Origin: a virus
Strand: one strand, 5' to 3'
Length of the DNA: 64,000 nucleotides
IMG/VR virus record: IMGVR_UViG_3300042910_000038
This document shows positions 41,688-61,226 of the stretch, one piece after another; position 1 is the first letter of the stretch; each line of letters starts with the position of its first letter. Position numbers and translations under genes: made by a program. The notes below the pieces were generated by a model. The model was not told where the DNA came from and searched no databases. It worked only from the letters and a program-made list of their open reading frames with translations.

Positions 41688-42698
41688 TCATTTCTTCCTC
41701 TCTTCCTCCTTGGGGACGTCCTCTATTCCGGCTTTTGTTATTTGGAATTCTACGGTTTCTCTTGGAAGGTAGTTTGAAGCTACAAGGGTTGCTAGGCGTT
41801 TGCTGGTTGCTCCGACAGGCTTCTGAAGGTAAACTCTGTGTCCAACTGCATGAGCTAGTGTGTGCCCTCCGACTGGTGGGTTTAAAACTTCCGGTCGTGT
41901 TTCATATTGTAGCGCTTCTGGTCTCGCCATAACCTGTTCTGTTGTTATAACTGCTAACTTGTAGGCTCGCATGTAGTTAAGAAGTCTCCGGACGCATTTG
42001 GCTATTAATGGCTGTCGAATGTGGAGAAGCTCTCTTCCAGGATACTCTGCTCTGAAAGGCGAAACGAAACTGTCTATAATCAAAATTTTGATGTTCTTTT
42101 CCTTGATGGGTTTGTGGGCGTTTTGAAGTAGGAACAGCAAGTGCTCGGTTCCATAAACTGCGCCGTGATAGATGTGGGGCAGAAGCTTATCTGGGTCTAA
42201 ACCTCTAGCTTTAGCCATTTCAGCAAGCCTAACGCTTGAAAAGCCTCCTTCAGTGTCCAAGTACCAAGTGTTTAACCCTTGTTCAGCAGCTAAAAGCGCT
42301 GTAGTCATACAGATTTCCGATTTACCGCTTTCATATTCTCCAGCGAACTCGGTTAGCTCCTCTTCAGGTATTCCTCCGCCTAGTAAACCGTCAAGGGCTT
42401 TAGAGCCAGTGGTGAAACGTTTACGCTTAATCTCCATTTCGTAAAGCTGTTTAGCGTCAATTATTTCAATTTTGAGGCAGTTTCTGGCTTCGTGAACTAT
42501 TTCCCTAGCTTTTTCAAGCGTGAAGCCCGGTCTAGCGCCGACGGTTTCGTAAAGTAAGTGTGGAGCTTCAACAGCTAAACTCTCTATCGTGTAATAGCCT
42601 TTGTCCTTAAGGATTTTAATGAGGTCAGGCGGCACCGACTTAAGCCTTTTTAAAGGCTCCTCCTCAAACTCTTCCTCAAAAACTTCATCTTCACTCAT
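41688..42698 (-). CDS. radA: Archaeal RadA/Rad51-like recombinase
   Basis: N-terminal HhH-like domain, TTGSKALDGLLGGG, GEYESGKS, LIIDS, PVGGHTLAH. Confidence 0.88.
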   Translation of the reverse strand: MSEDEVFEEEFEEEPLKRLKSVPPDLIKILKDKGYYTIESLAVEAPHLLYETVGARPGFTLEKAREIVHEARNCLKIEIIDAKQLYEMEIKRKRFTTGSKALDGLLGGGIPEEELTEFAGEYESGKSEICMTTALLAAEQGLNTWYLDTEGGFSSVRLAEMAKARGLDPDKLLPHIYHGAVYGTEHLLFLLQNAHKPIKEKNIKILIIDSFVSPFRAEYPGRELLHIRQPLIAKCVRRLLNYMRAYKLAVITTEQVMARPEALQYETRPEVLNPPVGGHTLAHAVGHRVYLQKPVGATSKRLATLVASNYLPRETVEFQITKAGIEDVPKEEERKK

Positions 42699-45490: not shown

Positions 45491-45655
45491 CTACTGTGTT
45501 GTGACCGCTCTAGCACCACATTTTCTACACTTCCATTTGTATACAACTTGTGGTGAGCCAAATATCGGATAAGCTCCAACAAGCTCCAACTTCTCCCCAC
45601 ATTTGCTACACACAGGAACGCCCTCCAACTTTTCAGCCTCTTTACCCTTAGACAT
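45491..45655 (-). CDS. Zinc-ribbon protein (54 aa)
   Basis: Manual ORF CSKCG...WKCRKCG. Confidence 0.55.
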   Translation of the reverse strand: MSKGKEAEKLEGVPVCSKCGEKLELVGAYPIFGSPQVVYKWKCRKCGARAVTTQ

Positions 45656-45807
45656 ATCGCCACCCAAAAAGCTTAAAAGTCTATGGAACTATTTTGCCGA
45701 ACACGTCCATCTTGTGTCCGGTTTCAGCGACGTGCTTCTTGGCTTTTTCTATGTCCTCTGTGGTGAAGCCGCATCCGCAGCTAGCCTTCAAATGGACTCT
45801 CACCACT

Positions 45808-46123: not shown

Positions 46124-46441
46124 TTGGTGTCTCCGTTGCCGGTTTACGTTTGTCCAAAATGCGGTAGGCGAGTTGAACTTCCAGAAGGCAACTACTACTG
46201 TAAGGTTTGCGGTCCAAGCGTTATTATGGAAAAATCCCCCTTTACTGAGAAGGACATTAAAGTGGGTAAAATTGTTAAATCTATTGGCAAGGAGTTTGAC
46301 TGGTTTATTGGTAGAACAGAAGTTGACTTTGAAAAGCTTAAGAAGGAAGACCCTGAAACTTACGAAGACTTCATGGAACTAATTGACAAAATGAAAACTT
46401 TAATCTACACAAGAACGTTGGCGGTGAAAGAAAAAACATAA
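46124..46441 (+). CDS. Zinc-leader protein 1
   Basis: PVYVCPKCGRRVELPEGNYYCKVCGP. Confidence 0.7.
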   Translation: MVSPLPVYVCPKCGRRVELPEGNYYCKVCGPSVIMEKSPFTEKDIKVGKIVKSIGKEFDWFIGRTEVDFEKLKKEDPETYEDFMELIDKMKTLIYTRTLAVKEKT

Positions 46442-46443
46442 AG

Positions 46444-46641
46444 GTGAATAAAATGCCAGTTTACAAATGCCCTAAATGCGGTCGAATCGTTGAGCTTCCA
46501 GAAGGCAACTACTGTTGCAAAATTTGCGGTCCCTCGGCTAGGCTGGTTAAAGCTTCAGTCGGCGGCGACCCGAATCATTTAGAGGTTGAGCTTCGCTTTG
46601 CAAGTGAAGAGGAAGCTTTGAGGCAAGGCTACGTTGAATGA
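46444..46641 (+). CDS. Zinc-leader protein 2
   Basis: MPVYKCPKCGRIVELPEGNYCCKICGP. Confidence 0.7.
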   Translation: MNKMPVYKCPKCGRIVELPEGNYCCKICGPSARLVKASVGGDPNHLEVELRFASEEEALRQGYVE

Positions 46642-47041
46642 CCCCCAATCAGTTTACGAGATTTTCACGAAAGCTAGGCTGAAGGCTCTTCCAGTTTTAT
46701 ATGCTGAGGCTAGACGCTTCAACGTTAAAGTTCCACCCATAGTAAGCGTTAAGGAAATTATGATTGGCGATAAAAGGGCTTTTGGACTATACGAGTTCAA
46801 TAAAAGACGGATTCTGATTAACCGGGCAAAGATTAAAGAGGGACTTGAATTAGGCTACGAGCCTGACGCCATTGTGGGCGAAATGATAACAACCATAATT
46901 CACGAGTTCAAACACTACATCGACCACGTAGCATACGGAGTAGGCTTGGAAAAATACCTGCAGAACCAGCTAAAATATGAAAGGGAAGCATATGAATACA
47001 CTCGACAAATAATTTTCAAATATTGGAAAATCAAGCTCTAA
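46634..47041 (+). CDS. Zincin-like HExxH protein
   Basis: TTIIHEFKHYID...EREAYE. Confidence 0.65.
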   Translation: MNDPQSVYEIFTKARLKALPVLYAEARRFNVKVPPIVSVKEIMIGDKRAFGLYEFNKRRILINRAKIKEGLELGYEPDAIVGEMITTIIHEFKHYIDHVAYGVGLEKYLQNQLKYEREAYEYTRQIIFKYWKIKL

Positions 47042-47068
47042 TTAGGACACCCAAAAAAGTTTTGGTGG

Positions 47069-47305
47069 CTATTGCTGTTTTAATGCTTCCCTGCCCTTTT
47101 CTGTAATCTTCCATAATGACAGCTTCGATGTTATCTTCCGCCTTTCAACGTATCCGTCGGCAGCCAACGTTAAAAGCCGATAGCGAACTTTCTCGCGTTC
47201 AACACCTAAATCCTTAACAGCCGCTAAAATCTCGCCTGTCGCCCTTTCACCGTTCTGAGCCAGAAACTCCAGTATTCTTTTAGACAGCTCGTCAAATTCG
47301 CTCAT
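47069..47305 (-). CDS. Winged-helix DNA-binding protein
   Basis: VRYRLLTLAADGYVERR..WKITEKGREAL. Confidence 0.75.
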   Translation of the reverse strand: MSEFDELSKRILEFLAQNGERATGEILAAVKDLGVEREKVRYRLLTLAADGYVERRKITSKLSLWKITEKGREALKQQ

Positions 47306-47310
47306 TTACA

Positions 47311-47586
47311 TCACCTTCTTCTAGCCTCTTCTAATGCACCTTCAAGCTTAAGAAGTTGGTCGTTCATCTGTTCAACCATCGCTACTACGTTGTCAAAGAT
47401 GCTGTGGGCTAAACCTGTAGCTTTGCCAAGCTCTTCAGCCAGCGAATTAATCTCGTCCGCCAATACGGGTTTCCCGCTTTTAAGCCTATGAACAACGCTT
47501 TCAAGATGCCTTAGAGCAGTCTCATGGAAAGCTACATGAAGCTCCCAAACCTCTTTCTTCCAATCCTTCTTCAACATTTTAAACAC
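47311..47586 (-). CDS. Helical hypothetical protein
   Basis: Follows motif. Confidence 0.5.
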   Translation of the reverse strand: MFKMLKKDWKKEVWELHVAFHETALRHLESVVHRLKSGKPVLADEINSLAEELGKATGLAHSIFDNVVAMVEQMNDQLLKLEGALEEARRR

Positions 47587-47612
47587 CCAAAAAACAATAC
47601 AACTTTACAGAA

Positions 47613-47963
47613 TTAGAGTTTTGCGCGTTTATAACATTCTAGATGGTACGTTTTCCCGTTGGTAAAAACCGAGCTATCTTTGACTCTAACCATTTTGCCA
47701 CATACTGGACACTTGCCAGAAAACCATGAAACGCCAAGCAGAACCTTCTTACACTTTGGACAAACAAGGCTCTCCTTTCTATCCTTCAGCAAAGGCTTGA
47801 ACCTCTTACGGTAATAAGACATGCTGTACAGCAAACCCCTTGACGTCTTATATCTGTACCATTCAAACCCGCAAAGGTTACACCTTATCCAGTCAATCCC
47901 CAACTTTAAACCATACTCGTCAACAACCTCAGCTATCTCATACTTCAACTCCATTCTCAACAC
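47613..47963 (-). CDS. Multi-zinc-finger protein
   Basis: CNLC, CPKC, CPVC, HLEC. Confidence 0.6.
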   Translation of the reverse strand: MLRMELKYEIAEVVDEYGLKLGIDWIRCNLCGFEWYRYKTSRGLLYSMSYYRKRFKPLLKDRKESLVCPKCKKVLLGVSWFSGKCPVCGKMVRVKDSSVFTNGKTYHLECYKRAKL

Positions 47964-47975
47964 CCAAAAACGAGT

Positions 47976-48617
47976 CTATGTTAAATGTTTTGCCATTCTT
48001 TTGAACCTCCAGTTTCCAGCAATAGGCTTATACTCGTATCCAAGCCTTTTAAGAAACTCTCTATACTTTTCCTCGTCTGGCGTTCCCTCATACAATGCAT
48101 CATTATCATGGGTGTACAGCGTGTGGACTTTGAATTTTGTTTTTAGGTAGTTTTCAAACCAGAGCCAAAGCTTCTCTAAAGTTTTCCAGTCAAACCCGTT
48201 TCCTCCGAAGCTTGGAACACCATCCTCGCTCAATTTGAAGCCCCTGTACAAGAAGCACTCCCACAAGGCACAGTGTCCGCCTTTCCTAAGCCAAGCCTGA
48301 GCGTTCCCAACCTGCTTAAACTCAACATTCTGCCTAACAACTTGAGAACGAACAACCCTCCCAATCAAGCTAGGCTCTTTCGCCCTTTCCTCAGCAGTCG
48401 CCGGCTTAATACTTATCAAAACAGTCGGCGAAATCCATGGAACAACAGGACGCACATGAACATAAGTGTCAAAGCCATTGTAAACTTCACGCTCAACAAG
48501 GTCATCCATGCCCAAACTTATAGGATGATAGTCTTCAACGTGGACTTTAACGCATAAACCATCACAGATTTCGTAGAATTCAGTAAAGTATTCATTTGAA
48601 ACAGGCAAAGCAAACAC
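47976..48617 (-). CDS. Hypothetical protein
   Basis: 213-aa ORF after motif; no confident family. Confidence 0.55.
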   Translation of the reverse strand: MFALPVSNEYFTEFYEICDGLCVKVHVEDYHPISLGMDDLVEREVYNGFDTYVHVRPVVPWISPTVLISIKPATAEERAKEPSLIGRVVRSQVVRQNVEFKQVGNAQAWLRKGGHCALWECFLYRGFKLSEDGVPSFGGNGFDWKTLEKLWLWFENYLKTKFKVHTLYTHDNDALYEGTPDEEKYREFLKRLGYEYKPIAGNWRFKRMAKHLT

Positions 48618-48626
48618 CCAATAATG

Positions 48627-49070
48627 CTAGGCTGTTGAGAGATATAGTTTTTCCATTTCCTCAGCTTTGTCATGTGCCTCCACATGTTTGTCCATGCATT
48701 TTTTGAATTCCCAAACGTCCTTAAGCCTTAAACACTGAAGGTCATAGTCACGGGGATAAATCCAATAACCAACAACTCTCTTTAGCTCTTCACACTCAAC
48801 AGCCTCATGAATGATGAAAGCTACAGCTTCTCTAAACTTCCCTTTATCCAAGTATCTCTCAACTATCAATATCCAACTGGGAAAGAACTCAGTAAACTTA
48901 TCCTTACTTATAGTGTAACCATGCTTCCTCAGAAAACGCTCAGCCTCTCTCCAAACATTCTCAGCCGGAGCAACAACCATCAATACTGATGGACCGCAAA
49001 ACTTACAATAATAGCTACCTTCAGGCAACTCAACAACCCTACCACACTTCGGACACTTATAGATTGGCAT
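48627..49070 (-). CDS. Zinc-leader protein 3
   Basis: MPIYKCPKCGRVVELPEGSYYCKFCGP; later HEAVE. Confidence 0.7.
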   Translation of the reverse strand: MPIYKCPKCGRVVELPEGSYYCKFCGPSVLMVVAPAENVWREAERFLRKHGYTISKDKFTEFFPSWILIVERYLDKGKFREAVAFIIHEAVECEELKRVVGYWIYPRDYDLQCLRLKDVWEFKKCMDKHVEAHDKAEEMEKLYLSTA

Positions 49071-49090
49071 ATTTACACCCAAAAAGCATC

Positions 49091-49297
49091 TCAGTCTTCC
49101 TTTTTGCAGTAGTCTCGGCAGAAAAGCTTTGGCAATCCGCTTGAAAATAATTCGCAGTCAACTCTTAGAAGAATATCTATTGAACGACAATGCTTACACG
49201 AATAGCACAATGCTGGTGTAGTCATCAATCTCAACAATTCTTCAAATCTTTGACGTACAAATTGAGCCAAATCCGCAAGAGGAATGTCTTTAGACAA
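49091..49297 (-). CDS. Cys-rich hypothetical protein
   Basis: CYSCKHC...C...CRDYC. Confidence 0.5.
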   Translation of the reverse strand: MSKDIPLADLAQFVRQRFEELLRLMTTPALCYSCKHCRSIDILLRVDCELFSSGLPKLFCRDYCKKED

Positions 49298-49300
49298 AGC

Positions 49301-49609
49301 TTAACCCCCTAATAGTGGTTTTAACCATTTTTGGCAGGCATGGCAACCTAAATCTAGGATTTTCTTCGCTCCTTTTGTCTCTGGCGTCCTTGAGTGTTTG
49401 CAGAAGTCGCAGTGGTCCCATAGCATGTTGCAGTCTAAACATTGAATCCAAACAAGATGGTAGCCATCATAGTATATTCTCACCTTATGCCCCAGATGGT
49501 CCGGAAGAACTTTGTCTATGTGCGCCTTGATTTTCTCGCCAATCTGCCTTAACTTAGGATGTCCAACCACTAAATCCTCAAACTTTTCCATCATCATGCT
49601 TTCACCCAA
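49301..49609 (-). CDS. Cys/His-rich hypothetical protein
   Basis: CLDC, CDFCKH, CHAC. Confidence 0.5.
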   Translation of the reverse strand: MGESMMMEKFEDLVVGHPKLRQIGEKIKAHIDKVLPDHLGHKVRIYYDGYHLVWIQCLDCNMLWDHCDFCKHSRTPETKGAKKILDLGCHACQKWLKPLLGG

Positions 49610-49623
49610 AAGCTTAATGCCAG

Positions 49624-50766
49624 TTAGGTTTTCTCTAGGACTTCAAGTATTATCCATGTGTGGCAGTATGGATATTCCCATTCTTCCTCCTCGCATACGA
49701 ATACAACTGTTTTGTCCTTTGCCCATTCTCTGTATATGTCGGCTTTCCTTCTAATCATAACTTCGGGAACTTCCGAGAGAAATCTCCGCTTATACTCTTC
49801 CCATCTTTCCCTCGTCTTCGGACCAGCCTTCCACCATGAAAGCAACTGTGGACTTGGAGCCAAATCCCTATCCCAAACATCAAACACTCCACTCTGCTCC
49901 TTCAAAACCTTCAAGCCTCGCACCCTAACCTCTATAGGAACATAGCGTGTCACCAGAACATAGAACTCATCAGGACGAGGATTCTCAATAACTTCCCTAA
50001 CACTCCTACGCTTAAAACCACTACTCTTAACAGTTTTCTCCCATGCTCTTGCAAGTCTTTTAAGCCGCCTATATCCACTTTCACGCGCCCTAACAAGCTC
50101 ATCAACCTTCTCTGCATGGGCAGGCAACTGCGGCTTATAATATCCTGCTAACTTTTCCTCAACATATTTCTTAGCCTCCTCTATATCCCTTGCCTCGAAA
50201 ACCTCTTCATACTCGGCTGGAGGATAGAGAATTTCCCGTTTCAGCTCCTCAAAATCCTTGATGCTGTGGACATACCAGACGTAAACCTTGTCCTCTTCAT
50301 CATAATATAGTGAATGAATATAATCCGTAGTAGCCGTCCACCAAATACCCGCAGAATCCCTAACCCACTTCAACCTCGAACCATGCACACTTCCACCCAA
50401 ACTTGAACCAGTAACTCCTTTGATGAAACGTTCCCTAACCTCTTCAGGCGTGGGATATTTTGGACTACTGTGATGCTTTGGAATTTTCAGAGCTTCGCCA
50501 TGTCTCAAAGTTTTAATCTTCGGGTAGTACTCTTCAATAATGTCGTCTGGAACACCGTAAAGCCTCAAATAATCAATAACTCCACTATAAGACGCTGTAG
50601 CATACTCACCTACAACAAAAGTCCCATGAACATTCTTAACGGTAACATAATCGCCATACACCCGCTCACGAACCATTAACGTGGCTGGTCCACAAACTTT
50701 ACAGTAATAATTACCCTCTGGAAGCTCAACCGTCCGTTCGCACTTAGGGCATTTATAGACTGGCAT
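49624..50766 (-). CDS. Zinc-leader protein 4, multidomain with C-terminal DUF488-like domain
   Basis: MPVYKCPKCERTVELPEGNYYCKVCGP; WDRDLAPSPQLLSWW..WEEYKRRFLSE..VFVCEE..CH. Confidence 0.65.
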   Translation of the reverse strand: MPVYKCPKCERTVELPEGNYYCKVCGPATLMVRERVYGDYVTVKNVHGTFVVGEYATASYSGVIDYLRLYGVPDDIIEEYYPKIKTLRHGEALKIPKHHSSPKYPTPEEVRERFIKGVTGSSLGGSVHGSRLKWVRDSAGIWWTATTDYIHSLYYDEEDKVYVWYVHSIKDFEELKREILYPPAEYEEVFEARDIEEAKKYVEEKLAGYYKPQLPAHAEKVDELVRARESGYRRLKRLARAWEKTVKSSGFKRRSVREVIENPRPDEFYVLVTRYVPIEVRVRGLKVLKEQSGVFDVWDRDLAPSPQLLSWWKAGPKTRERWEEYKRRFLSEVPEVMIRRKADIYREWAKDKTVVFVCEEEEWEYPYCHTWIILEVLEKT

Positions 50767-50777
50767 TGATTGTCACT

Positions 50778-51125
50778 CTAAATACGGTATCCGAAGCATA
50801 TTAAATCGTAAAACTCAAACAAATACTCGTATTTGCCAGATTCCAGTTCACGCTTCAGAATCTTCTTTAGTATCTCTTCAGCCTCAGCCATAGACACCTT
50901 CATTTCCTTAGCAATCCGCTTGACAACTTCCTTCCTAGGCAAACACGTAGAATCAGAAATACCGTCCCCCTGTTCCCAAATCACATCCTTCGCTATCTCA
51001 AGGGCTTTTTCAACAACATCTTCCTGCTTAACCATCAAGACATCTGGACCACACTTTGAACAGTAATATGTCCCCTCAGGCTTTTCAACCGACCTACCAC
51101 ATTTAGGACAAACATAAACTGGCAT
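50778..51125 (-). CDS. Zinc-leader protein 5
   Basis: MPVYVCPKCGRSVEKPEGTYYCSKCGP. Confidence 0.7.
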   Translation of the reverse strand: MPVYVCPKCGRSVEKPEGTYYCSKCGPDVLMVKQEDVVEKALEIAKDVIWEQGDGISDSTCLPRKEVVKRIAKEMKVSMAEAEEILKKILKRELESGKYEYLFEFYDLICFGYRI

Positions 51126-51131
51126 CCGTTT

Positions 51132-51497
51132 TCACCCAAACCTTGCTTTCATAGCTAATTCTGCCTCTTCGTTTGTCAGTAAGCCTCGCCTGTTCCAAGC
51201 CGCAACGAAATCCTGCCACAAAACATTCTTCTGCGTAGGCGTCAAAGTCCTATCCAATTCCAGAACACTCCAAACAGCATGCATAGCCGGATGACTCCTA
51301 ATAACGTCCATAGGCTCAGCGGGAACACCGCCCGGAACAGCAGCCAACTCCTTAAGCGTTGTCTTCCCAACAAACTTCATAATGTGCGCCGGACCGCAAA
51401 CCTTGCAATAATAAGTTCCCGGCTTCTCCATAGCAACCTCTCTTCCACACTTTGGACACCTGTAAACCCAACGCTCTTCAGCCAATATTCCACCCAA
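51132..51497 (-). CDS. Zinc-leader protein 6
   Basis: WVYRCPKCGREVAMEKPGTYYCKVCGP. Confidence 0.7.
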   Translation of the reverse strand: MGGILAEERWVYRCPKCGREVAMEKPGTYYCKVCGPAHIMKFVGKTTLKELAAVPGGVPAEPMDVIRSHPAMHAVWSVLELDRTLTPTQKNVLWQDFVAAWNRRGLLTNEEAELAMKARFG

Positions 51498-51513
51498 AAA
51501 TATTTTGATGGTT

Positions 51514-52185
51514 TCACCTATATTTGCTTAATGTTTTCACTATGGCGTTCACCTCTCTCCTGCTCTGTTTATGTTTAACCATCCTTGCAAGCTTCTGGCA
51601 GTCTCTGAAATCCTTAGAGCCAAGCTTGTTCCAAACGCAGAAAGCAATATACCTCGCAATCTTCGGGTTAACCTTCTCCCTCCTCACAAGCACGTTCTTG
51701 GCAACTTGAAGAAACTCGTTCCACTTGTAAGGCTTAAACTTCAAAACAACAAAACGGCTCAGCAACTCCTCAGGCAACTCACTGACATCGTTAGCCGCCC
51801 CAACCACAATAGTTTCAAGCCTCTCAACCCTACTCCTCTTATGCAAAGTCTCAACAACAAGACCAGTCTCCATAAGCGACAGCAAAACAGCCAAACACTC
51901 CCTATCAGCCACCTTGTCAATCTCGTCCAGAAGCAAAATCTTGGGCTTCTGCTCAAGCAACAGCCAAGTCAATCCAGCGCGACTTAACCGAGAGCCAAGC
52001 ACATACGCTGAACCCTTAACCCTCTGCAGACACAACAGAAACAAAGACTTCGCGGACGCTGGCGGACCATAAAGCAGAAAATGAACTGGAAGACCATCTC
52101 CATGCATGCGCAGAGCCTTCAGGAAAAGCGCCTTAACATCTTCGTATCCGATAATCGGGTCGAAAATGGACGGATTGACTTTCAC
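51514..52185 (-). CDS. Stand-alone AAA+ ATPase (MCM/RuvB-like)
   Basis: Walker A YGPPASAKS, Walker B LLLDEIDK, GAAN, SRF. Confidence 0.85.
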   Translation of the reverse strand: MKVNPSIFDPIIGYEDVKALFLKALRMHGDGLPVHFLLYGPPASAKSLFLLCLQRVKGSAYVLGSRLSRAGLTWLLLEQKPKILLLDEIDKVADRECLAVLLSLMETGLVVETLHKRSRVERLETIVVGAANDVSELPEELLSRFVVLKFKPYKWNEFLQVAKNVLVRREKVNPKIARYIAFCVWNKLGSKDFRDCQKLARMVKHKQSRREVNAIVKTLSKYR

Positions 52186-52200
52186 ACTTTACACCCAAAA

Positions 52201-52292
52201 TAAGCGATTGATTGTGTGACTGGCTGATGCGCGTATGGCTAGACCAAAGCCTGTCTGGAAGACCGAGCTGTGTTTGGGGGAAAGTTGGTTTG
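52201..52292 (-). ncRNA. CNNN-periodic unit D (candidate guide RNA)
   Basis: caaa ccaa cttt cccc caaa caca gct cggt cttc caga cagg cttt ggtc tagc cata cgcg cat cagc cagt caca caat caat cgct. Confidence 0.6.
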
Positions 52293-52303
52293 CACCCAAA
52301 AAA

Positions 52304-52402
52304 GGATTGGATGAAGGGATGAAGGGACCCTTGCATGAAGGCTGTACGCGTGCATGCTAGGACGGATGACTGATTACATAACGATTAAGACTTGCCCCGT
52401 TG
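52304..52402 (-). ncRNA. CNNN-periodic unit C (candidate guide RNA)
   Basis: taat cagt catc cgtc ctag catg cacg cgta cagc ctt catg caag ggtc cctt catc cctt catc caat. Confidence 0.6.
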
Positions 52403-53074
52403 TTAATCCACTTTTTCGAATTTTACTATTTTTACCTTTCCCCTTTTGGTTGGTCCAAACTTGGCTGTTTCCAGTGCATGTAGTATTTGAGCCATTTCGT
52501 CATCTTCCAATGGTGCCACCCCGTTTGATGTTATCGTGCATGGTATGTTTATGTCTTTTATCACCTCGTACGCTATGTCAGCTCTGACTTTTTCTCCTGA
52601 CCTCTGCTTCGAATGTCTGGTCTCGCTTACAATATCGATGTAAAGCTTGTCTTTAACGTCTTCCAGCGGAACTTCAAACCATTCCGGCTCAATAGTGACC
52701 AGTGCAACTTTTGGCAGTTTATACCCTAAGCTTTTAATCTCTTTGCACACCTGCCTTAGGGTAGTGTCTAAAATTCCGAAATGTCCGCCAAAGGGTATCA
52801 ACAGCTTTTTCCCGTCTTTGCTCCGTGGGAAAGTTCTGAACGGTATTTCTTTCTCTTCAGACTTAACGACGCTTGTCGTCCTTGAACGTTTCTTAGACTT
52901 CTCCTTTGTCACTTCTTTGTTAGTAACTGCAATAATTTGTTTCTCTGGAAGTTGGTACCACATTGTATACTGCGGGTCCTGCCTTGCATAGAGCCTTTCA
53001 ATCTTAAACTCAACGTTCCAAGCAACGTCCTTAGACCTCCAAGCATTAATAAGAGGCGTCAAATCCGTAGCCAT
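52403..53074 (-). CDS. Solitary Cas7/Csf2-like RAMP-fold protein (putative)
   Basis: Strand WNVEFKIERLYAR, FPRSKDGKKLLIPFGGHFGILDTTL, AYEVIKDINIPCTI, helix, Gly-loop FGPTKRG then KVKIVKFE; start reassigned to ATG 53074. Confidence 0.55.
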   Translation of the reverse strand: MATDLTPLINAWRSKDVAWNVEFKIERLYARQDPQYTMWYQLPEKQIIAVTNKEVTKEKSKKRSRTTSVVKSEEKEIPFRTFPRSKDGKKLLIPFGGHFGILDTTLRQVCKEIKSLGYKLPKVALVTIEPEWFEVPLEDVKDKLYIDIVSETRHSKQRSGEKVRADIAYEVIKDINIPCTITSNGVAPLEDDEMAQILHALETAKFGPTKRGKVKIVKFEKVD

Positions 53075-53119
53075 TTTCCCACTTTCCTCCTTTTCCACTT
53101 TAGGCTTACACCCAAAAAA

Positions 53120-53204
53120 GTTGACAGACTGCCTGGAAGGGTGTACGTCTGGTTAAGTGAATGGCTGATTGGTCTCTTCAGGGAGTGCACGCCTGAAAGT
53201 CTGG
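53120..53204 (-). ncRNA. CNNN-periodic unit B (candidate guide RNA)
   Basis: 21 tetramers in unbroken register; 18 start with C, 14 have A second. Confidence 0.65.
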
Positions 53205-53213
53205 CACCCAAAA

Positions 53214-53286
53214 GTTGGGCGACTACATGACTGTCTGTTTGAATGTGGATTGAACGCTGAGTGTCAACTACACGCTGGACTGAGTG
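53214..53286 (-). ncRNA. CNNN-periodic unit A (candidate guide RNA)
   Basis: cact cagt ccag cgtg tagt tga cact cag cgtt caat cca catt caaa caga cagt catg tagt cgcc caac. Confidence 0.6.
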
Positions 53287-53303
53287 CACCCAAAAAGGCT
53301 TGT

Positions 53304-53594
53304 TTACATGAATTCGTGTAGGTATGCGTTTTTTGCTTGTAGCTTGTAGTCCGCCAAGACTTTTGGTATAGGTTCGCCTTTTGCAACTCTGTTTATAGCT
53401 TCTAAAAGCATTTCTCGACCTCTAAACCCTTCACTTTTAGGGTAAATCCGGTCTTCATTCTCAAACATAAACTGCAACAGCCTCAAAACATCTTCAACAG
53501 TAAAAACCTCTTCACCATCCGTTTCTAACAACAGAATCCAATCTCTCTCATGCTTTTTACCCTTAACATAACGCCATCTGACCACAAACAACAC
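53304..53594 (-). CDS. Hypothetical protein
   Basis: Follows motif variant; directly upstream of unit A. Confidence 0.55.
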   Translation of the reverse strand: MLFVVRWRYVKGKKHERDWILLLETDGEEVFTVEDVLRLLQFMFENEDRIYPKSEGFRGREMLLEAINRVAKGEPIPKVLADYKLQAKNAYLHEFM

Positions 53595-53601
53595 CCAACA
53601 T

Positions 53602-53815
53602 TTAACCCTCTTTCAGCTCTATTTTGAAGTTTCCCGTAAGCCGATAGTTTTCCAGCTCCTGCCAACAAACATATCTGTAGGCTGGGCATCCATATTCAGA
53701 GCAGTTTTCTGGAAAGTCTCTGGTGCAGTTTCCCGCAGTTTGGACAATGAATCTCCCAGTCAAAGTTTATGCACTTCCTCTCAAATACACACCAGTAAAT
53801 ATCCTTCTTCTTCAA
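53602..53815 (-). pseudogene. Frameshifted Cys-rich small gene
   Basis: MKKKDIYWCVF..CPNC in one frame, ..CSEYGCPAYRYVCW.. in another; AAACTGC repeated at the switch. Confidence 0.4.
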
Positions 53816-53839
53816 ATTCGACACCCAAAAAAAGCATTT

Positions 53840-54055
53840 TTATTCTTCTAGAATCTCGATTTCCTCAATCTCTTCAATTGGAATCTCAATTGTCCCTCTT
53901 TGTCGCTCTGGATAGACCTCCATCCATGGACTAATTATGACTTTGGGCATCCGCACGTAGTTTCTAATGATAACATGCTTGTCATCTCGCTCTACAAGTT
54001 CACCTTCTATCACTCCATCCCAAAATCCCCTCTTTTTCTTAACTCTAACCTTCAT
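53840..54055 (-). CDS. Small beta protein (Sm/SH3-like pattern)
   Basis: VIEGELVERDDKHVIIRN...IEIPIEEIEEIEI. Confidence 0.5.
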   Translation of the reverse strand: MKVRVKKKRGFWDGVIEGELVERDDKHVIIRNYVRMPKVIISPWMEVYPERQRGTIEIPIEEIEEIEILEE

Positions 54056-54074
54056 AAGTTATCACCCAAAAATT

Positions 54075-54359
54075 CTATTTTGGCTTTAGGTCTATTACGA
54101 TTTTGTCTCCCCTTTCAAGATACTCCTTTAAGTTCGCTAGAAAACACTTTGAACACATGGCAAGACCTCCTCGCATAACATAGCCTCCTACAACTTTCTC
54201 ATCTTTAAAGCGCATCAGGATATAATCGAAAGGCTGGTGGACAACTAATGCTGGAAAATCCATCAAAGGCTTAGAACACAAGTCGCAAACAGGATTAGCC
54301 ACAGCAAACCTTTCACGATTCCAAAGCTCGATTTTAACCTCAGCCAAACCAACACCCAA
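54075..54359 (-). CDS. Zinc-binding hypothetical protein
   Basis: CDLC...CSKC. Confidence 0.5.
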   Translation of the reverse strand: MGVGLAEVKIELWNRERFAVANPVCDLCSKPLMDFPALVVHQPFDYILMRFKDEKVVGGYVMRGGLAMCSKCFLANLKEYLERGDKIVIDLKPK

Positions 54360-54368
54360 AAATGCTTT

Positions 54369-54500
54369 TTAAATTAGCTCGCAGTCCGTTGAACCACATT
54401 CCGTGCATTTAACAGTTACAAACCTTTTAGGCGAAGGCTTCAAGTAGAACTCTTTTCCACAACTTCTACACCTGTACTGGGCTTTTTGACGATTCTTCAT
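54369..54500 (-). CDS. Zinc-ribbon protein (43 aa)
   Basis: Manual ORF YRCRSCGKEF...KCTECGS. Confidence 0.55.
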   Translation of the reverse strand: MKNRQKAQYRCRSCGKEFYLKPSPKRFVTVKCTECGSTDCELI

Positions 54501-54521
54501 CCTATGAACTCACCCAAAATG

Positions 54522-55220
54522 TTAGCGGGTGGGTCGGGCGTACGTTTTAGGTTGCAACATCTTAAACGATATGCTTCTTGAAGCCCATATTAGGTAGAAA
54601 ACCTCGCTTATCACAGCTTTCACATCTCCAATATTTCTTGTGAAGACATTTCTTTCAATGTGGATGTGGACTGCCGGCAAACCATACCACTGATGGAAGT
54701 GAAGCTGGTCAACTCTCACATGGTGTATTCCAAACCAGTCCCGTATGAAGTCATAAGACTTTTCCGAAGTTGCCAACGCTACTGGAATGTCGCCTTCAAC
54801 CCTGAACATTCCAGAATCCGGAAAATATTCAAAGGAAACTGAGCCAACAGTCGCGGTTAAAGCGTAGTCGCTAAACCTTTCAAAAGGAAGAATCCACGGG
54901 TAGATTCCGCACTCTGCAAGGCGAAGCTCAACCCTTCTTCTAAACTCTCTATCCTGATAATCCAGCGTCATTATGGTCGCGCCGTAAGCTTTTGCACGGA
55001 CAGAAAAACCGCGTGCAGTCAAATCCTCAATAAGCTCTCTAATAAGCTTCTTAACCTCTTCTGGAAAACCCTCGGGAATTTCGCGTCTAACAACAGCTTC
55101 TTCCCCGTTTGGGTTTCCAACCTTAACCATCAGGGCTTGTGGACCACACTTGGCACAGAAATACCTGCCCAAGGGCTTTTCAACTGTTCGCCCGCACTTA
55201 ACACACTTGTAAGTCGGCGT
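54522..55220 (-). CDS. Zinc-leader protein 7 (ACG at the start position)
   Basis: Frame extends upstream of track start: ACG-PTYKCVKCGRTVEKPLGRYFCAKCGP. Confidence 0.6.
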   Translation of the reverse strand, partial: TPTYKCVKCGRTVEKPLGRYFCAKCGPQALMVKVGNPNGEEAVVRREIPEGFPEEVKKLIRELIEDLTARGFSVRAKAYGATIMTLDYQDREFRRRVELRLAECGIYPWILPFERFSDYALTATVGSVSFEYFPDSGMFRVEGDIPVALATSEKSYDFIRDWFGIHHVRVDQLHFHQWYGLPAVHIHIERNVFTRNIGDVKAVISEVFYLIWASRSISFKMLQPKTYARPTR

Positions 55221-55254
55221 CCCAACCCACCCAAAAAACTATCAGCTTTAAACG

Positions 55255-55596
55255 TTAAAAGCTTTTGCCCTCCAGCTTTTTCTCCACGCTTTCAAGCCTC
55301 TTCTCCAGCGATTCAACCCTCAAAGAAAGCGTTGCAATCTCCTGCCAAACGTCCTCCGGAACCCTGAACTCAACGGGCTTGCTCGGCTTAACCCTAGCCT
55401 TCCAACCTTCAAGCCACTCGTCGAAAGCCTTCAAAATCTTCCGCCTACAGTCCTCGCACAGATTCTGGTCAACAACCTCCTCAAACTTCTCCCTAGCAAC
55501 CCAAGGCTCCAAACCATAGACCTCAGCGTAGTTAGCCCCCAAAACACTCTCCAAACGCCAAGAAACAAGCTCCCACAACTTACCCATAAGAAACAC
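55255..55596 (-). CDS. Hypothetical protein with CxxC and coiled tail
   Basis: CEDC; LSLRVESLEKRLESVEKKL. Confidence 0.5.
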   Translation of the reverse strand: MFLMGKLWELVSWRLESVLGANYAEVYGLEPWVAREKFEEVVDQNLCEDCRRKILKAFDEWLEGWKARVKPSKPVEFRVPEDVWQEIATLSLRVESLEKRLESVEKKLEGKSF

Positions 55597-55607
55597 CCAA
55601 AAATTGT

Positions 55608-56723
55608 TTAGTCGGTGGTAATTATAGGCGCCAACCAGAACGTTATTTGGCTTCCGTATAGCTGTGTTAGTATTTCAGTTTTTATAGGCATGTCTGAAGC
55701 TAAATGCAACGTTGCTATGTCTCCTATTTTCGGCAGTATCCTTACAAGCTCTTCAGTTTTGAAGCTTGCCTTAACATCCCTGTAACCCTCTAAAGCCAAA
55801 AGTATATCCGAGCCTTTCTTAACGTTCACCTCAGCCTTAACCGTTTCACCCTTACCAGTCAAAGTTAAACCCTCATCCGTAGCCTCAATGGTAACCGTGT
55901 CAGCCTTCTGCTTAATCCTCTCAAGCTTAGCCACAAACTTGTCCAAGTCAACCTTAGCTAAAACTTTAAAGTCAACCTTTGGAACAGGCACATCCTCATA
56001 ATGCTCGTCCAGAAGGCTCAAAGTAAACCTGTCCCTAGAACTTCCAACATCAACGCGCACAATGAACTCGCTTTCCTTGATACTAGGCTCACTTGTCCAA
56101 ACACTTTCCTTACGCTTCCAGACGCGAACTTTGCCCCTCCACTTGCACGTTGAACCGTCAGGCAAACGCCAACCACATTTATACCGCGTCCCTTTCGGAC
56201 CCCTCTGATTTGGCATGAGCATGTTATAAACCGTTGGGTTTCCACATTTTGGACACGTTTCAGGCTTCCGCCTCTCAACCTCAATAACGCTTCTCCGACA
56301 ATTGTAAACCGTCTTAACCTCAAACTCAGCCTTAGAATACTTATCGCATTCAGCCAAAGCATACAATAGCTCGCTTGCCAAAACATGGACGGTTACAGGC
56401 AAATCAACAGTCTTCATTCTGGGCGAGGCTGGCGCAACCTCGTAAGATTCCATATCAGTCTTCGAAACGCTTACGTCAGCCAACTTGTAGCGGTCGCTAT
56501 CCATAAACCTCAAAGACAAACCGTCATAGCTAAAGGTTAAAGGCAAAGCATCCTCACTGTAGCCACCTTTAAGAAAGCTCTGATGCAAAGCCTTCAACAA
56601 ACTCCTAAAAGTCAACAACTGCTCGCCGCCAAAACTGAACCTGACAACAACGCCTCTTTTGAAAACTCTTGGCTGTTTAGACTTTTCCTTCTGAACAACA
56701 ACTTGCTCCGTCATACAAAACAC
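55608..56723 (-). CDS. pcn: PCNA (sliding clamp) homologue with zinc-finger insertion
   Basis: LTFSYDGLSLRFMDSDRYKL, YEDVPVPKVDF, ADTVTIEA, SDMPIK, FWLAP; insert CPKC...C..C. Confidence 0.78.
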   Translation of the reverse strand: MFCMTEQVVVQKEKSKQPRVFKRGVVVRFSFGGEQLLTFRSLLKALHQSFLKGGYSEDALPLTFSYDGLSLRFMDSDRYKLADVSVSKTDMESYEVAPASPRMKTVDLPVTVHVLASELLYALAECDKYSKAEFEVKTVYNCRRSVIEVERRKPETCPKCGNPTVYNMLMPNQRGPKGTRYKCGWRLPDGSTCKWRGKVRVWKRKESVWTSEPSIKESEFIVRVDVGSSRDRFTLSLLDEHYEDVPVPKVDFKVLAKVDLDKFVAKLERIKQKADTVTIEATDEGLTLTGKGETVKAEVNVKKGSDILLALEGYRDVKASFKTEELVRILPKIGDIATLHLASDMPIKTEILTQLYGSQITFWLAPIITTD

Positions 56724-56743
56724 CCAAAAAAATATATGCTATT

Positions 56744-57121
56744 TTGGTGAATTTCTTTTTTGTGAGATGTATGGCAACTGAGTATGAGAGATTGATGACT
56801 GAAGAGGAAAAGAGGCGTGCTGAACGTGAACGGAGATGGGAAAGAATTTCCCATGAAATGGAAAGAGAAGCTAGGGTGAGACTAGATGCTATTGGTAGGG
56901 CAATGTCAATATCAGCGGTTATCGATGAAGTCAAACTGGCGAAGCATAAGTTCAAAGGATACATAGACACTATCCGGAGAGACTTACCTGAATATGTTGA
57001 CGATGCAATAGCATCGGTAACTTTCTACTTAAGCGACATCTGGAGCAAAGGCAGAGAAAGAATAACTGAAATATACGATAAACTTGTAGGTGAAGAGTCG
57101 GTATACACAAAGCCTACGTAA
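56744..57121 (+). CDS. Isolated + strand helical protein
   Basis: Opposite orientation, AT-rich TATA-like upstream. Confidence 0.5.
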   Translation: MVNFFFVRCMATEYERLMTEEEKRRAERERRWERISHEMEREARVRLDAIGRAMSISAVIDEVKLAKHKFKGYIDTIRRDLPEYVDDAIASVTFYLSDIWSKGRERITEIYDKLVGEESVYTKPT

Positions 57122-57147
57122 ATCCAAAAGCAACACCCAAAAACTTG

Positions 57148-57390
57148 CTATTTTTCCTCTTCTTTATGTTTTACTGCAAGAGTGAATTCTCTGCAAACTT
57201 TAGCTAGGCTTTCCGCTTCGAAAGGTCTGTCCTTGTCGTCCCAGTTTCCAAGCAGAGGCTTAACAGCACGGTAAACAGCACAGACGTTTAAATGACTGCA
57301 ATACGTGCACTTCTTATCCACAAACCTACCTATGTCTCCTTCAAACTCCGCCAACCTACCCTTAACAGTAACAGTAGTCAAACGAAACAC
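57148..57390 (-). CDS. Cys-rich hypothetical protein
   Basis: CTYCSHLNVC...C. Confidence 0.5.
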   Translation of the reverse strand: MFRLTTVTVKGRLAEFEGDIGRFVDKKCTYCSHLNVCAVYRAVKPLLGNWDDKDRPFEAESLAKVCREFTLAVKHKEEEK

Positions 57391-57401
57391 CCAAAAATTT
57401 C

Positions 57402-57698
57402 TCAGCCAAAAACCAAGCCAGCAGTTTTCTGTATATACCTTCTGGCTAACGGATACTTCATCATCAGTTTATGATACTCCCTTAATGCTGGAACAACTCT
57501 CTCTTTCATGTCTCTCTCAGCATCGCCAGTCCTCGGCGGAAGCGTAGCAAGAAAACTCATCCACTCATCCATAAACCTAAAATACTCTTCCTTTTCGGGA
57601 GAAAGCCTCTGCAAACGAGTTCCACAAACCTTACAAGTGTAACTTCCCTCTGACAAGTCGACATATCTATTACACTTTGGACATTTATAAATCGGCAT
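57402..57698 (-). CDS. Zinc-leader protein 8
   Basis: MPIYKCPKCNRYVDLSEGSYTCKVCG. Confidence 0.7.
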   Translation of the reverse strand: MPIYKCPKCNRYVDLSEGSYTCKVCGTRLQRLSPEKEEYFRFMDEWMSFLATLPPRTGDAERDMKERVVPALREYHKLMMKYPLARRYIQKTAGLVFG

Positions 57699-57739
57699 TT
57701 AAATACACCCAAAAGCATGTTTCTCTTTTTATCAATAGT

Positions 57740-58195
57740 TTAGGTGTAAGGAGATACTGAACCATAATACTCTAGACAATTAGGCGGTATGTTCTTGAAA
57801 ACCAGAACTTTCTCTGGGCTTCTGATGATTCCCGCTTTTGCTTGACGTTGTAACCTATCCCAAATTCTTCTTCCGTAATACTTTATTATGCGTTCTGCAT
57901 CATCGTAGTATTGGTCATAGTCAACAATTCTTCCAGTCTCATCGAGCGCAAGCGTTATACTTTTGAAATCTGGGATTCCGTTGATAACGTCTTTTACGTC
58001 TAAATATGATAACCCTCTATCCGAAAGCCATCTTTCTAAATCATCGCCACAAAGCCTAGCTCCTCTCTTTAAAGGAAACACTTCATGTGACCCAACAGGT
58101 TCCATAACATAAGTCGGACCACAAACAGCACAGTAGTATGTCCCTTCTGGTTTTTCCACACGCCTGCCGCATTTTGGACACACATAAACCGGCAA
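57740..58195 (-). CDS. Zinc-leader protein 9
   Basis: TTG-PVYVCPKCGRRVEKPEGTYYCAVCGP. Confidence 0.7.
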   Translation of the reverse strand: MPVYVCPKCGRRVEKPEGTYYCAVCGPTYVMEPVGSHEVFPLKRGARLCGDDLERWLSDRGLSYLDVKDVINGIPDFKSITLALDETGRIVDYDQYYDDAERIIKYYGRRIWDRLQRQAKAGIIRSPEKVLVFKNIPPNCLEYYGSVSPYT

Positions 58196-58238
58196 TCTAA
58201 ACACCCAAAAAGATATTCGTTGACCTTTCCATATAAAG

Positions 58239-59119
58239 CTATTTGCCTATTGAAATTGCTAAGACCTTGTGCAGTTCAGCGTTCAAGTTCCGTTTAGTGA
58301 ACATGCTGGCTGTTTCGCTGTGCCAAATTGCACGAGTCACATCATCATAGACCTCCCATAGAGTTGCTGGCTTCAAAATTTCTATTTTGTTTTCAACAGC
58401 TTTAATGTATTCTGGCAGATACTTCTTTGGCAATCTTTCAGCAAGGCGTTCTGCAATTTCTTGGTTCAGCTTCAGCGCAGTCAAAGCCCTATAATTGTCA
58501 AGTATAGCCTTGCCCCTGTCAACAATCTCCAGAATCGTTGTCTTCAGCTTTCCAACGTCAAGCTCCAAATGCTTCGTATGCTTCCAATACGCCTTAATCT
58601 CCAAATCACCAGTCTTCACAACAACTCCATTGGAGCATATCAATCGAAAAGTAAACAGGTCTATGCCAAACCCCATAGAACCATTTCCGAGGAGACGTGC
58701 CTCCACACAGTCTCCTCTTCGGAGTTTCTCACTTGCACGCCTAACTGCACTTTGTCGCCTGTGTCTATCTTGTAGCGTTCTGGGAAAACCATTGTCCAGT
58801 AGGCTCTGAAGCTTTTCTCGTCGAAATCGTACACAGTTCTTCCGCCATGAACAAGCTCATGTCCGCTCCGCTTCATCACTTGTAAGCCAAACATCTCGCT
58901 CAGTTGCTCAACAGCTTGGTTAACCATAGCGTTCGGCAAAAGCCGGTATCCGCGGCTAACAATCGATATTACTCTAGGCTGTTCCTTGATTTCCTTGATT
59001 ATGGCTTTGAACGGAATCCGCTGACCCTTAAACTTCAACGGAGCTTCATAAAGCCCGTAGTCTGCGAACTTGTCGTCTATCCGCTCAAAGTCAAGCCAAA
59101 CACCAGACAGCTTTTCCAT
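58239..59119 (-). CDS. DUF932-like protein, spliced (exons 58717-59119 and 58239-58684; 282 aa)
   Basis: VSRGYRLLPN; after splicing VRNSEDGSMGFGIDLFTFRLICSNG. Confidence 0.75.
58685..58716 (-). other. 32-nt archaeal bulge-helix-bulge intron in a protein-coding gene
   Basis: CCGA-AG^A-GGAGAC-13 nt-GUCUCC-UCGG-AA^A; excision restores frame and NSxDG motif. Confidence 0.8.
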
Positions 59120-60496: not shown

Positions 60497-60943
60497 TTAT
60501 TTGATGTTTTGAAGCAGGTTGTCTAGCTTTTCCTTTGTCTCTTTTAGGAAACTGTCAACTTGTTCATTGAAGTCTTCTGGGCTTTCAGCAAGCTCTCCCC
60601 ATCTGCAGTCGTAAACGTTTACGACTACTTCGTACACGTATTTGCCTATGGTTACATCCTTGACAACCCTTACCTCGTTATTCTTGTAGTCTGAATCCAC
60701 GCGCTCAAAGAACCATAAGCCTTTCACGGCATCCTCACCGAACCGCTTCTTAAACTGCTCTTTAAGAAAGCCAGCGAAGTGCCAAAGCTCATTGACAATG
60801 TTTTCAAAGTCATACTCCCTGTTCAAGTAGACGCCCATATAGGCTTCAGCATCCTCTTCATCCTCGACAACCTTCTCCCTAATCAAATACTCCCTAAACT
60901 CATCCCACAAGCTCATACAAACACCCAAAAACGTTCTTATCAC
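60497..60943 (-). CDS. Acidic hypothetical protein (true start probably MSLWDEF)
   Basis: Motif at 60922. Confidence 0.5.
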   Translation of the reverse strand: MIRTFLGVCMSLWDEFREYLIREKVVEDEEDAEAYMGVYLNREYDFENIVNELWHFAGFLKEQFKKRFGEDAVKGLWFFERVDSDYKNNEVRVVKDVTIGKYVYEVVVNVYDCRWGELAESPEDFNEQVDSFLKETKEKLDNLLQNIK

Positions 60944-61226
60944 TTTCTGTTTCGTTGGCTTTTTGGGAATTCGATTTTTCTAGGAATTCGATGGCTTCTT
61001 CATCTATGATGAACAAGGTTTTTCCACATTCTGGACATTTATACTCGGCGAACAAGGTTTCTCCGCATTTTGGACATTTATAGAGGAATTCATACATGCC
61101 TTCTTCTTCCATTGTGCGAATGTATTCATACTGTGGTATATAGCCGTGGAGGCTTAACATGTATTCATCAATCGTATATTCCAACAGATAGTCTATTTCT
61201 TTTCCGCATTTTGGACATTTCGGCAT
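60900..61226 (-). CDS. Zinc-ribbon protein with duplicated CPxCG
   Basis: CPKCG three-fold pattern. Confidence 0.55.
   Translation of the reverse strand: MPKCPKCGKEIDYLLEYTIDEYMLSLHGYIPQYEYIRTMEEEGMYEFLYKCPKCGETLFAEYKCPECGKTLFIIDEEAIEFLEKSNSQKANETESDKNVFGCLYELVG

Follow-up and report, generated by a model that had tools for sequence, protein, structure and literature searches.

Why should nine genes on one stretch of viral DNA open with the same zinc-binding sequence and then encode nine unrelated proteins? The question is raised by the region between 46.1 and 58.2 kb of the virus record IMGVR_UViG_3300042910_000038, analysed here as a stretch of 64 kb (the window). The answer developed below is that the shared segment is a conserved folded domain behind which proteins are exchanged by recombination, and we lean, by a little, towards its being a docking domain. 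The original prediction held that nine genes share one N-terminal zinc ribbon (the leader) in front of unrelated C-termini (the cargos), and both parts of it were borne out. A six-frame scan of the 64 kb for CxxC(5-14)CxxC found 12 sites. Nine of the 12 carry the signature x-P-x-Y-x-C-P-K-C-G-R-x-V-E-x-P-E-G-x-Y-Y-C-x-x-C-G-P-x-x-x-M, a C4 ribbon of 31 residues (MPxYxCPKCGRxVExPEGxYYCxxCGPxxxM), each at the start of an open reading frame (ORF), and a hidden Markov model (HMM) of the leader matched the nine copies at E-values from 1.8e-15 to 1.6e-19. The scan found the ribbon nowhere in the 64 kb outside these genes, the remaining three sites (47700, 49400 and 61026) being different zinc motifs. 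When the nine cargos were compared all against all by BLASTP (nine-sequence database), no match was better than E 0.012. The nine genes are listed below; g numbers give the first coordinate, P numbers are protein clusters and L numbers are metagenome contigs.

46124..46441, + strand: leader protein 1 (g46124); ribbon 46136-46228, then about 70 amino acids (aa) of cargo with no recognised fold; HMM E 2e-19; orthologues P0021 and P0117.
46444..46641, + strand: leader protein 2 (g46444); ribbon 46453-46545, followed only by a 30-aa tail (VGGDPNHLEVELRF...); HMM E 5e-18.
48627..49082, − strand: leader protein 3 (g48627); ribbon 48978-49070; the cargo is 'module B' (HEAVExEE), recurrent in mosaic relatives; HMM E 1.6e-19.
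49624..50766, − strand: leader protein 4 (g49624); ribbon 50674-50766, then module A, the junction KYPTPEEVRERFIKGVTGSS, module C and a DUF488-N3a domain (ParB/Srx-type fold; PF22751, E 2.8e-14).
50778..51125, − strand: leader protein 5 (g50778); ribbon 51033-51125, then a long helix and a winged-helix domain.
51132..51497, − strand: leader protein 6 (g51132); TTG start probably at 51485 (MAEERWVYRC); ribbon 51375-51470 with a one-residue loop insertion; helical cargo; HMM E 1.8e-15.
54522..55220, − strand: leader protein 7 (g54522); complete ribbon 55128-55220, with ACG in the start-codon position; cargo of about 200 aa, possibly YbjN-like.
57402..57698, − strand: leader protein 8 (g57402); ribbon 57606-57698, more divergent than any other copy (CNRYVDLSEGSYTC...CGT); cargo of about 70 aa; HMM E 8.6e-16; orthologue P0047.
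57740..58204, − strand: leader protein 9 (g57740); TTG start probably at 58195; ribbon 58103-58195; cargo of about 120 aa with no recognised fold; HMM E 3.7e-17; orthologue P0027.

Structure prediction indicates that the leader is an autonomous folded C4 zinc-ribbon domain of 31-34 residues, not a linear signal. The AlphaFold2 model of the leader, built on a 38-sequence alignment, has a predicted local distance difference test score (pLDDT) of 91.7 and forms a three-stranded zinc ribbon (strands 3-5, 12-14 and 26-30, then the start of a helix). It is compact and has the two CxxC knuckles of the zinc ribbon (rubredoxin-knuckle) fold. In the full-length model of g50778 (pLDDT 86), the ribbon is followed by the long helix and a separate winged-helix domain. 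The four cysteines and G26 are invariant in 110 sequences, and in the same sequences P2, Y4, P7, K8, G10, R11, V13, E14, P16, G18, Y20, Y21, P27 and M31 are 73-99% conserved. As judged from this alignment, the 15 conserved non-ligand positions (G26 included; 73-100%) go far beyond what a zinc knuckle needs. The ribbon also stands at the extreme C-terminus of some proteins, in clusters P0091, P0119 and P0120 and on contigs L045 and L046. This occasional C-terminal position, together with the stable fold, argues that the ribbon is not a cleavable signal-like peptide.

At the DNA level the leader copies of the window are 53-79% identical to one another and their flanks 13-43%, and 56% of the codons for identical residues differ synonymously among these paralogues. 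With synonymous sites so scrambled, conservation must act on the peptide, and an RNA- or DNA-level element within the leader was rejected on this ground. The original prediction had also described some copies as nearly identical DNA. For the pair at 46136 and 58195, 33 of the first 36 bases do match, but the two whole leaders are only 79% identical, so that the near identity is limited to a short stretch. The conservation of the peptide does not follow that of the cargo: where orthologous cargos are only 20-40% identical (24 pairs), the leaders are still 66% identical on average. In two distant relatives, L024 and L028, the identity to the window is 28% for PCNA, 36-38% for RadA and 55% for the AAA+ protein, and 70-77% for the leaders. 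By these alignments the ribbon is the best-conserved protein segment of these elements, exceeding every core protein compared, and the same comparisons show strong purifying selection on the ribbon, independent of the cargo.

Most copies open ATG-CCN (Met-Pro), two open TTG-CCG, and g51132 has a short MAEERW extension. The likely ATG starts are at 46453, 49070, 50766, 51125 and 57698, and the likely TTG starts at 46136 (or 46124), 51485 and 58195. In the case of g54522 the original prediction named the right gene but an ORF that began in mid-ribbon. No in-frame ATG, GTG or TTG lies upstream of the ACG in this gene, the 232-codon frame is intact, and contig L044 (2216-2316), which differs elsewhere, has the same arrangement (window 55128-55232); the ACG is possibly a near-cognate start or the trace of a recent start loss. 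Most leader genes have a T-rich-GGGTG sequence (TTTTTGGGTG) 6-8 nt ahead of the start codon, which places it some 10-25 nt upstream of the codon for the first Cys. Where it is in frame it translates as 'FWV', and public gene calls therefore over-extend some N-termini (e.g. P0054 and P0109). The public gene call for the g49624 protein (P0001) errs in the other direction, beginning at Met31 and omitting the ribbon. An internal start at this conserved Met31 was considered and rejected, since no clear GGTG-type ribosome-binding motif lies at the usual distance before the codon; Met31 is better explained as a core residue.

How widely is the ribbon used, and on what? The profile of the nine leaders, searched against 1.84 billion representative proteins, gave 135 matches at E ≤ 1e-3, 62 of them at E ≤ 1e-10. 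Once generic double-zinc-ribbon proteins were removed, 101 clusters were retained as true leader proteins, with the ribbon nearly always at residues 1-31. A pattern scan of Joint Genome Institute (JGI) metagenomes yielded 48 loci, and hmmsearch over all loci obtained gave 141 matches. Not counting a few weak matches or L003 (the element of the window itself), this amounts to some 115-120 further copies on about 45 metagenome contigs. They often stand in tandem, with seven genes within 3.3 kb in L024, six in the 4.1-kb L005, six in L031 and five in L020.

Scans by short peptide pattern found no confirmed match to the leader in IMG/VR or in 185,579 prokaryotic species (one genome each). A tblastn search with g50778 found nothing in GenBank phage and archaeal-virus records or in PLSDB plasmids, and an alignment of the element's PCNA found no match in IMG/VR. 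The sequencing runs that carry the region are from hot-spring and sediment metagenomes of at least 11 studies. The member RLI40289.1 comes from a 3-kb contig that was binned as Ca. Bathyarchaeota, and the RadA of the element, at most 46% identical to any named cellular RadA, is nearest to those of Thermofilum, Nitrososphaerota and Desulfurococcales. These affinities make the host probably a thermophilic member of the Thermoproteota. The ribbon family is thus far restricted to a single group of uncultivated elements of archaea, virus- or plasmid-like, from hot springs and hydrothermal sediments, and full-text searches found no description of the module in the literature.

Searching related elements with the leader HMM and cataloguing the cargos, the check proposed with the original prediction, gave 101 clusters with more than 60 unrelated cargo types. 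The 109 cargos (those of the 101 clusters plus the window's) fall into 65 unlinked BLAST components, of which 52 are singletons, and the idea of a portable module carried on many cargos is upheld. All nine window cargos have at least one leader-bearing orthologue elsewhere. Pfam identifies few cargos: DUF488-N3a, a GNAT acetyltransferase, a nucleotidyltransferase and rubrerythrin. A Foldseek search relates the winged helix of g50778 to the winged-helix DNA-binding domains of CprK/CRP, ScpB and BlaI, with probabilities reaching 1.00 and E-values near 1e-2. PHROGs gave only weak matches, to families of unknown function. Against the Atlas, the g54522 cargo gave a weak YbjN-like structural lead (template-modelling (TM) score only 0.5-0.6), and the g57740 cargo had no structural match. 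In relatives such as P0119 and P0015, the ribbon or cargo modules are joined to a ParB/sulfiredoxin-like domain (…EGR[NH]R…). DUF488 also belongs to the ParB-CTPase fold (bioRxiv 10.1101/2025.10.10.680097), and this fold may recur among the cargos.

The DNA of the relatives shows how such diversity has come about, namely by exchange of cargos through recombination within the ribbon coding sequence. Contig L005 carries two adjacent leader genes, A (1541; leader AEERWVYRC…, cargo KFVGKTT…) and B (1896; leader MPVYEC…, cargo RRVFTEEELRK…). The single gene L011:257 has the upstream region and leader of L005:1541 joined to the cargo of L005:1896. The crossover lies inside AAGGTTTG(C/T)GGTCC, the codons for K-V-C-G-P, and past it the L011 gene matches B nearly everywhere aligned (97-99% in the segment compared downstream). 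On this alignment the L011 gene is a leader-to-leader crossover that deleted cargo A. The leader of g51132 is also involved in this chimera.

Systematic comparisons agree with this. Among protein pairs, 247 combine leaders at least 85% identical with cargos less than 30% identical, and 5 of the 68 same-cargo pairs have leaders less than 70% identical. In DNA, 14 between-contig pairs are at least 93% identical in the leader and less than 45% downstream. One of the 14, g49624 against L007, is 98% identical upstream, 96% in the leader and 35% downstream, L007 having an extra module inserted directly behind the ribbon. In seven further pairs the downstream DNA is 97-99% identical and the leaders only 67-70%. 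Many swaps carry the upstream region along with the leader (upstream identity 92-98%). The homologues of g49624 are mosaics of recurrent modules, with or without the leader, and their breakpoints lie at the ribbon end and at recurrent junctions (HHS[SN]P; ERF[IV]KGV[GT]GS[SN]). The suggestion of a recombination hub thus held good: there are DNA chimeras with the crossover in the K-V-C-G-P codons, identical leaders on unrelated cargos and identical cargos behind different leaders. On these data the ribbon segment of about 90 nt, often with the upstream ribosome-binding site, serves as a homology patch for recombination in a hypervariable island, and cargo domains are swapped, deleted, duplicated and fused behind it.

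Recombination describes how cargos are exchanged; what the ribbon does for them is a separate matter. Somewhat more than we doubt it, we favour the reading that the ribbon is a common docking or address domain, which brings accessory proteins of fast turnover to one shared target. A changing set of activities (winged-helix, ParB/Srx-like DUF488, GNAT, nucleotidyltransferase and others) would in this way be delivered to one place. The main argument about the target comes from the conservation described above: as the core proteins of the elements have diverged far more than the ribbon, the target is probably slow-evolving and non-viral, most likely a host machine or nucleic acid rather than a viral protein. 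Several points weigh against docking. No binding partner of the ribbon was identified. The zinc-ribbon fold is generic, and the leader has no significant structural neighbour (Foldseek against PDB, none at E ≤ 1e-3). Every sequencing run found to carry the region is DNA. Finally, leader-restricted gene conversion occurs occasionally, and part of the conservation need not reflect a shared partner. Among the readings offered in the original prediction, docking is nevertheless the one that we infer to be the best. Two of the alternatives considered below, contact with nucleic acid and contact with RNA polymerase, are specific versions of docking, so that their probabilities overlap with it.

The genes surrounding the leader genes bear on several of these alternatives. 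Those that define the setting are as follows.

46634..47041, + strand: HExxH-motif protein (IIHEFKHYIDH), no Pfam match; context, not a leader gene; 78-79% identical in L002, L008 and L018.
47976..48617, − strand: conserved protein of 213 aa; downstream border of the variable leader array; about 10 loci have it at 80-90% identity, with arrays of differing content.
51514..52185, − strand: AAA+ ATPase, weakly RuvB-like; context, directly upstream of the leader array.
55608..56723, − strand: PCNA (sliding clamp) homologue of 371 aa; context; profile search against PDB finds Thermococcus and Pyrococcus PCNA at E 1.3e-11.

The order of AAA+ gene and then leader array is kept in at least nine contigs (L005, L006, L011, L013, L016, L032, L033, L042 and L049). 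Where the contig extends far enough the array ends at the 213-aa gene, and its content varies from contig to contig. Fixed borders around contig-specific content are the signature of a hypervariable accessory island, and on sequence evidence the leader arrays lie in the replication/accessory arm of the element.

Several further features of this arm were noted. The 3' end of g46444 overlaps the start of the 135-aa HExxH gene in the window and in L002, L008 and L018, so that leader protein 2 and the HExxH gene recur as a pair in these contigs, with the HExxH gene always following a minimal leader protein. The pair of ribbon and zincin (46444-47041) recalls SprT-like proteases, but is made of two ORFs in reversed order. 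At least five other small Cys-rich or zinc-ribbon proteins outside the leader family are encoded in the same arm (54369-54500, 45491-45667, 47613-47963, 49091-49609 and 60900-61226, all on the − strand), and the 43-aa ribbon protein at 54369 is conserved in relatives. The PCNA homologue, which is kept in relatives at 28-88% identity, carries a C4 zinc-ribbon insertion of about 60 aa between its halves. In L001 (8074-9558) and L002 (4664-6550) the AAA+ gene is interrupted by about 270-390 aa with LAGLIDADG domains (an intein), and the window copy is uninterrupted. In the window two overlapping ORFs make up a DUF932-like gene (58239-59119, − strand). The gene is divided in the same way at L001:971-1761, L028:2123-2953 and L046:4321-5190, in relatives as distant as 63-80% identity, and this recurrence points to a conserved feature (an intron or recoding) rather than a sequencing error. 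The RadA position (window 41688-42698) is occupied by one or the other of two very different genes in L010, L014, L015, L021, L024 and L028, which are either 96-99% or only 33-38% identical to that of the window, indicating replacement of the recombinase.

The alternative that survives best is that the ribbon tethers its cargos not to a protein but to nucleic acid, either RNA or the replicating DNA of virus or host, which we regard as possible but on balance unlikely. The conserved face is basic and aromatic (K5/K8/R11/K23; Y4/Y20/Y21), the genes lie in a replication module with PCNA, AAA+, RadA and ParB, and the recognisable cargos are nucleic-acid-related (winged helix, ParB/Srx-type DUF488 and nucleotidyltransferase). 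Zinc modules of MCM and PolC are among the structural neighbours of the leader, though not significantly so: desulforedoxin (1dxg, TM about 0.6) ranks first, zinc modules of MCM, PolC, LapB and Rpb12 come next, and all are at E > 0.2. Many zinc ribbons, moreover, mediate protein contacts instead.

A rather more doubtful proposal dispenses with a shared partner altogether. The ribbon would then be a zinc-stabilised N-terminal cap or expression cassette, spread because ribosome-binding site and ribbon together make a handy recombination unit, and the similarity of its copies would reflect descent and gene conversion. The generic fold agrees with this, as does the upstream region that travels with the leader in many swaps, and two pairs within contigs reach 95-96% nucleotide identity in the leader alone, a sign of leader-restricted gene conversion between them. 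However, the median identity of leader DNA within contigs is only 68% and synonymous divergence is heavy, and a cap would not readily explain why so many non-ligand positions are conserved, or why the ribbon is conserved above every core protein compared.

Could the shared target be the host RNA polymerase? Here the ribbon would mimic a polymerase-binding ribbon, that of RpoP/Rpo12 or the B-ribbon of TFB/TFIIB, and plug viral effectors onto the enzyme. In a profile search of PDB sequences, Pyrococcus and Thermococcus Rpo12/RpoP are the top single-domain matches (E 6e-5 to 1e-3; 'VYRCxKCGREV'), and the JGI pipeline annotates several members as RPC12/RpoP. The nearest Pfam family is the TFIIB ribbon PF08271 (Zn_Ribbon_TF), the best family for 22 of the 101 relatives at E < 1e-3. 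All of its scores, however, lie under the gathering threshold of 29 bits, the best in the window being 25.0 bits (g57402) and the best among the 101 relatives E 8.6e-6. PF03604, with a threshold of 24 bits, matches only g50778 in the window (E 0.017, 15.3 bits) and is not among the Pfam families matched by the 101 relatives. A control PDB search with another ribbon of this element, the unrelated 43-aa one at 54369-54500, likewise put RpoP near the top (E 0.003), so that the RpoP likeness of the leader is generic. A complex prediction of the leader with P. furiosus Rpo3/Rpo11/Rpo10 scored 0.00 and was counted neither for nor against.

RpoP/Rpo12 stands alone, is about 45-50 aa long, ends in a conserved basic tail and docks on the Rpo3-Rpo11-Rpo10 platform. 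Like Rpo12/RpoP (PF03604, COG1996), the leader is a small C4 ribbon that opens xxVY[RK]CxKCG[RK]xV and has a hydrophobic strand after the second CxxCG. Unlike it, the leader lacks the basic C-terminal tail, has a shorter loop between the knuckles, falls below the Pfam cut-off, and is fused to a variable cargo of 30-410 aa. A length-restricted search (45-aa query) found no stand-alone cellular relative, the sole candidate (P0020) being itself a leader protein. With the TFB/TFIIB B-ribbon (PF08271) the leader shares its N-terminal position, the CPxCG…G-x-x-x-C-x-x-CG pattern and the P-E-(x)-G loop. It differs in its sub-threshold score and in having variable cargo behind it in place of a B-reader, linker or cyclin domain; in Pfam searches the TFIIB core (B-reader/B-linker and two cyclin folds) was found in none of the nine proteins or the 101 relatives. 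Polymerase mimicry is accordingly a very unlikely account of the ribbon. Given the sub-threshold Pfam scores, the generic RpoP likeness and the lack of a significant structural neighbour, we assign the ribbon to a new zinc-ribbon family of its own, outside RpoP and TFB.

The original prediction had also proposed a tag for virion packaging or ejection, or a leader that a protease cuts off, and either role for the ribbon is highly improbable: a constant N-terminal element on unrelated proteins fits such tags, but no evidence was found for either version, the ribbon being a stably folded zinc domain instead of a short linear peptide, with C-terminal copies, encoded in the non-structural arm, and the putative clan-CD peptidases of the element matching no Pfam family. 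The GNP/GDP/SP-type linkers noticed in the prediction do exist, G-[ND]-P or SP lying just past the ribbon in g54522 (VGNPNG), g46444 (VGGDPN) and at least 22 relatives, a minority of the members. As a self-cleaving or protease site they were rejected, because the sequence is more simply an ordinary helix N-cap (N/D-P-x-x-E), is missing from most members and offers no conserved cleavage site. The comparison that suggested such a tag is with the T4 internal proteins (IPI-III and Alt), whose capsid-targeting sequence, a short linear peptide some 10 residues long, is removed by the prohead protease. The likeness is a common N-terminal element on otherwise unrelated proteins of one virus; the difference is that the leader is a folded zinc domain, and at times C-terminal.

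If the ribbon is an address domain, as we favour, finding its target would at once tell where more than 60 families of 'hypothetical' proteins act, in thermophilic archaeal elements that are still unexplored, and the ribbon itself would be a compact (31 aa), heat-stable and genetically portable targeting tag. Whatever its function, it is a clear natural case of a short conserved coding segment that organises domain shuffling. Since parents and recombinants both survive in public metagenomes, the modular evolution of archaeal-virus proteins can be analysed directly.

The architecture itself, a constant N-terminus with unrelated C-terminal domains exchanged at the junction, is that of a polymorphic effector. 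We offer tentatively, as a thing that may well prove otherwise, the wider proposal that these elements run a 'polymorphic effector' system of their own. With the ribbon as address domain, a changing repertoire of enzymes and binding domains would be attached to a single conserved machine of the host (RNA polymerase, the replisome or chromatin), while the ribbon's coding sequence would double as a cassette-exchange site for trading effectors between related elements. If this is true, the leader arrays would be an archaeal-virus counterpart of bacterial polymorphic toxin loci, serving host takeover or counter-defence. Bacterial polymorphic toxin and effector systems (Rhs, CDI, LXG and MuF-type) have a constant N-terminal region and swappable C-terminal domains. 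In the leader genes, too, a single constant head precedes dozens of unrelated tails, the genes stand in tandem arrays, and recombination occurs where the constant and variable parts meet. The leader genes differ in being encoded by virus-like elements, with products that are presumably intracellular. Pfam and PHROGs found no secretion, trafficking or recognisable toxin domains in the leader proteins, and no paired immunity genes are evident, the leader genes being directly successive in the arrays with no small partner genes between them. We rate the plan of constant head and variable cargo as already known; what is new here is its base, a zinc-ribbon family in uncharacterised archaeal elements.

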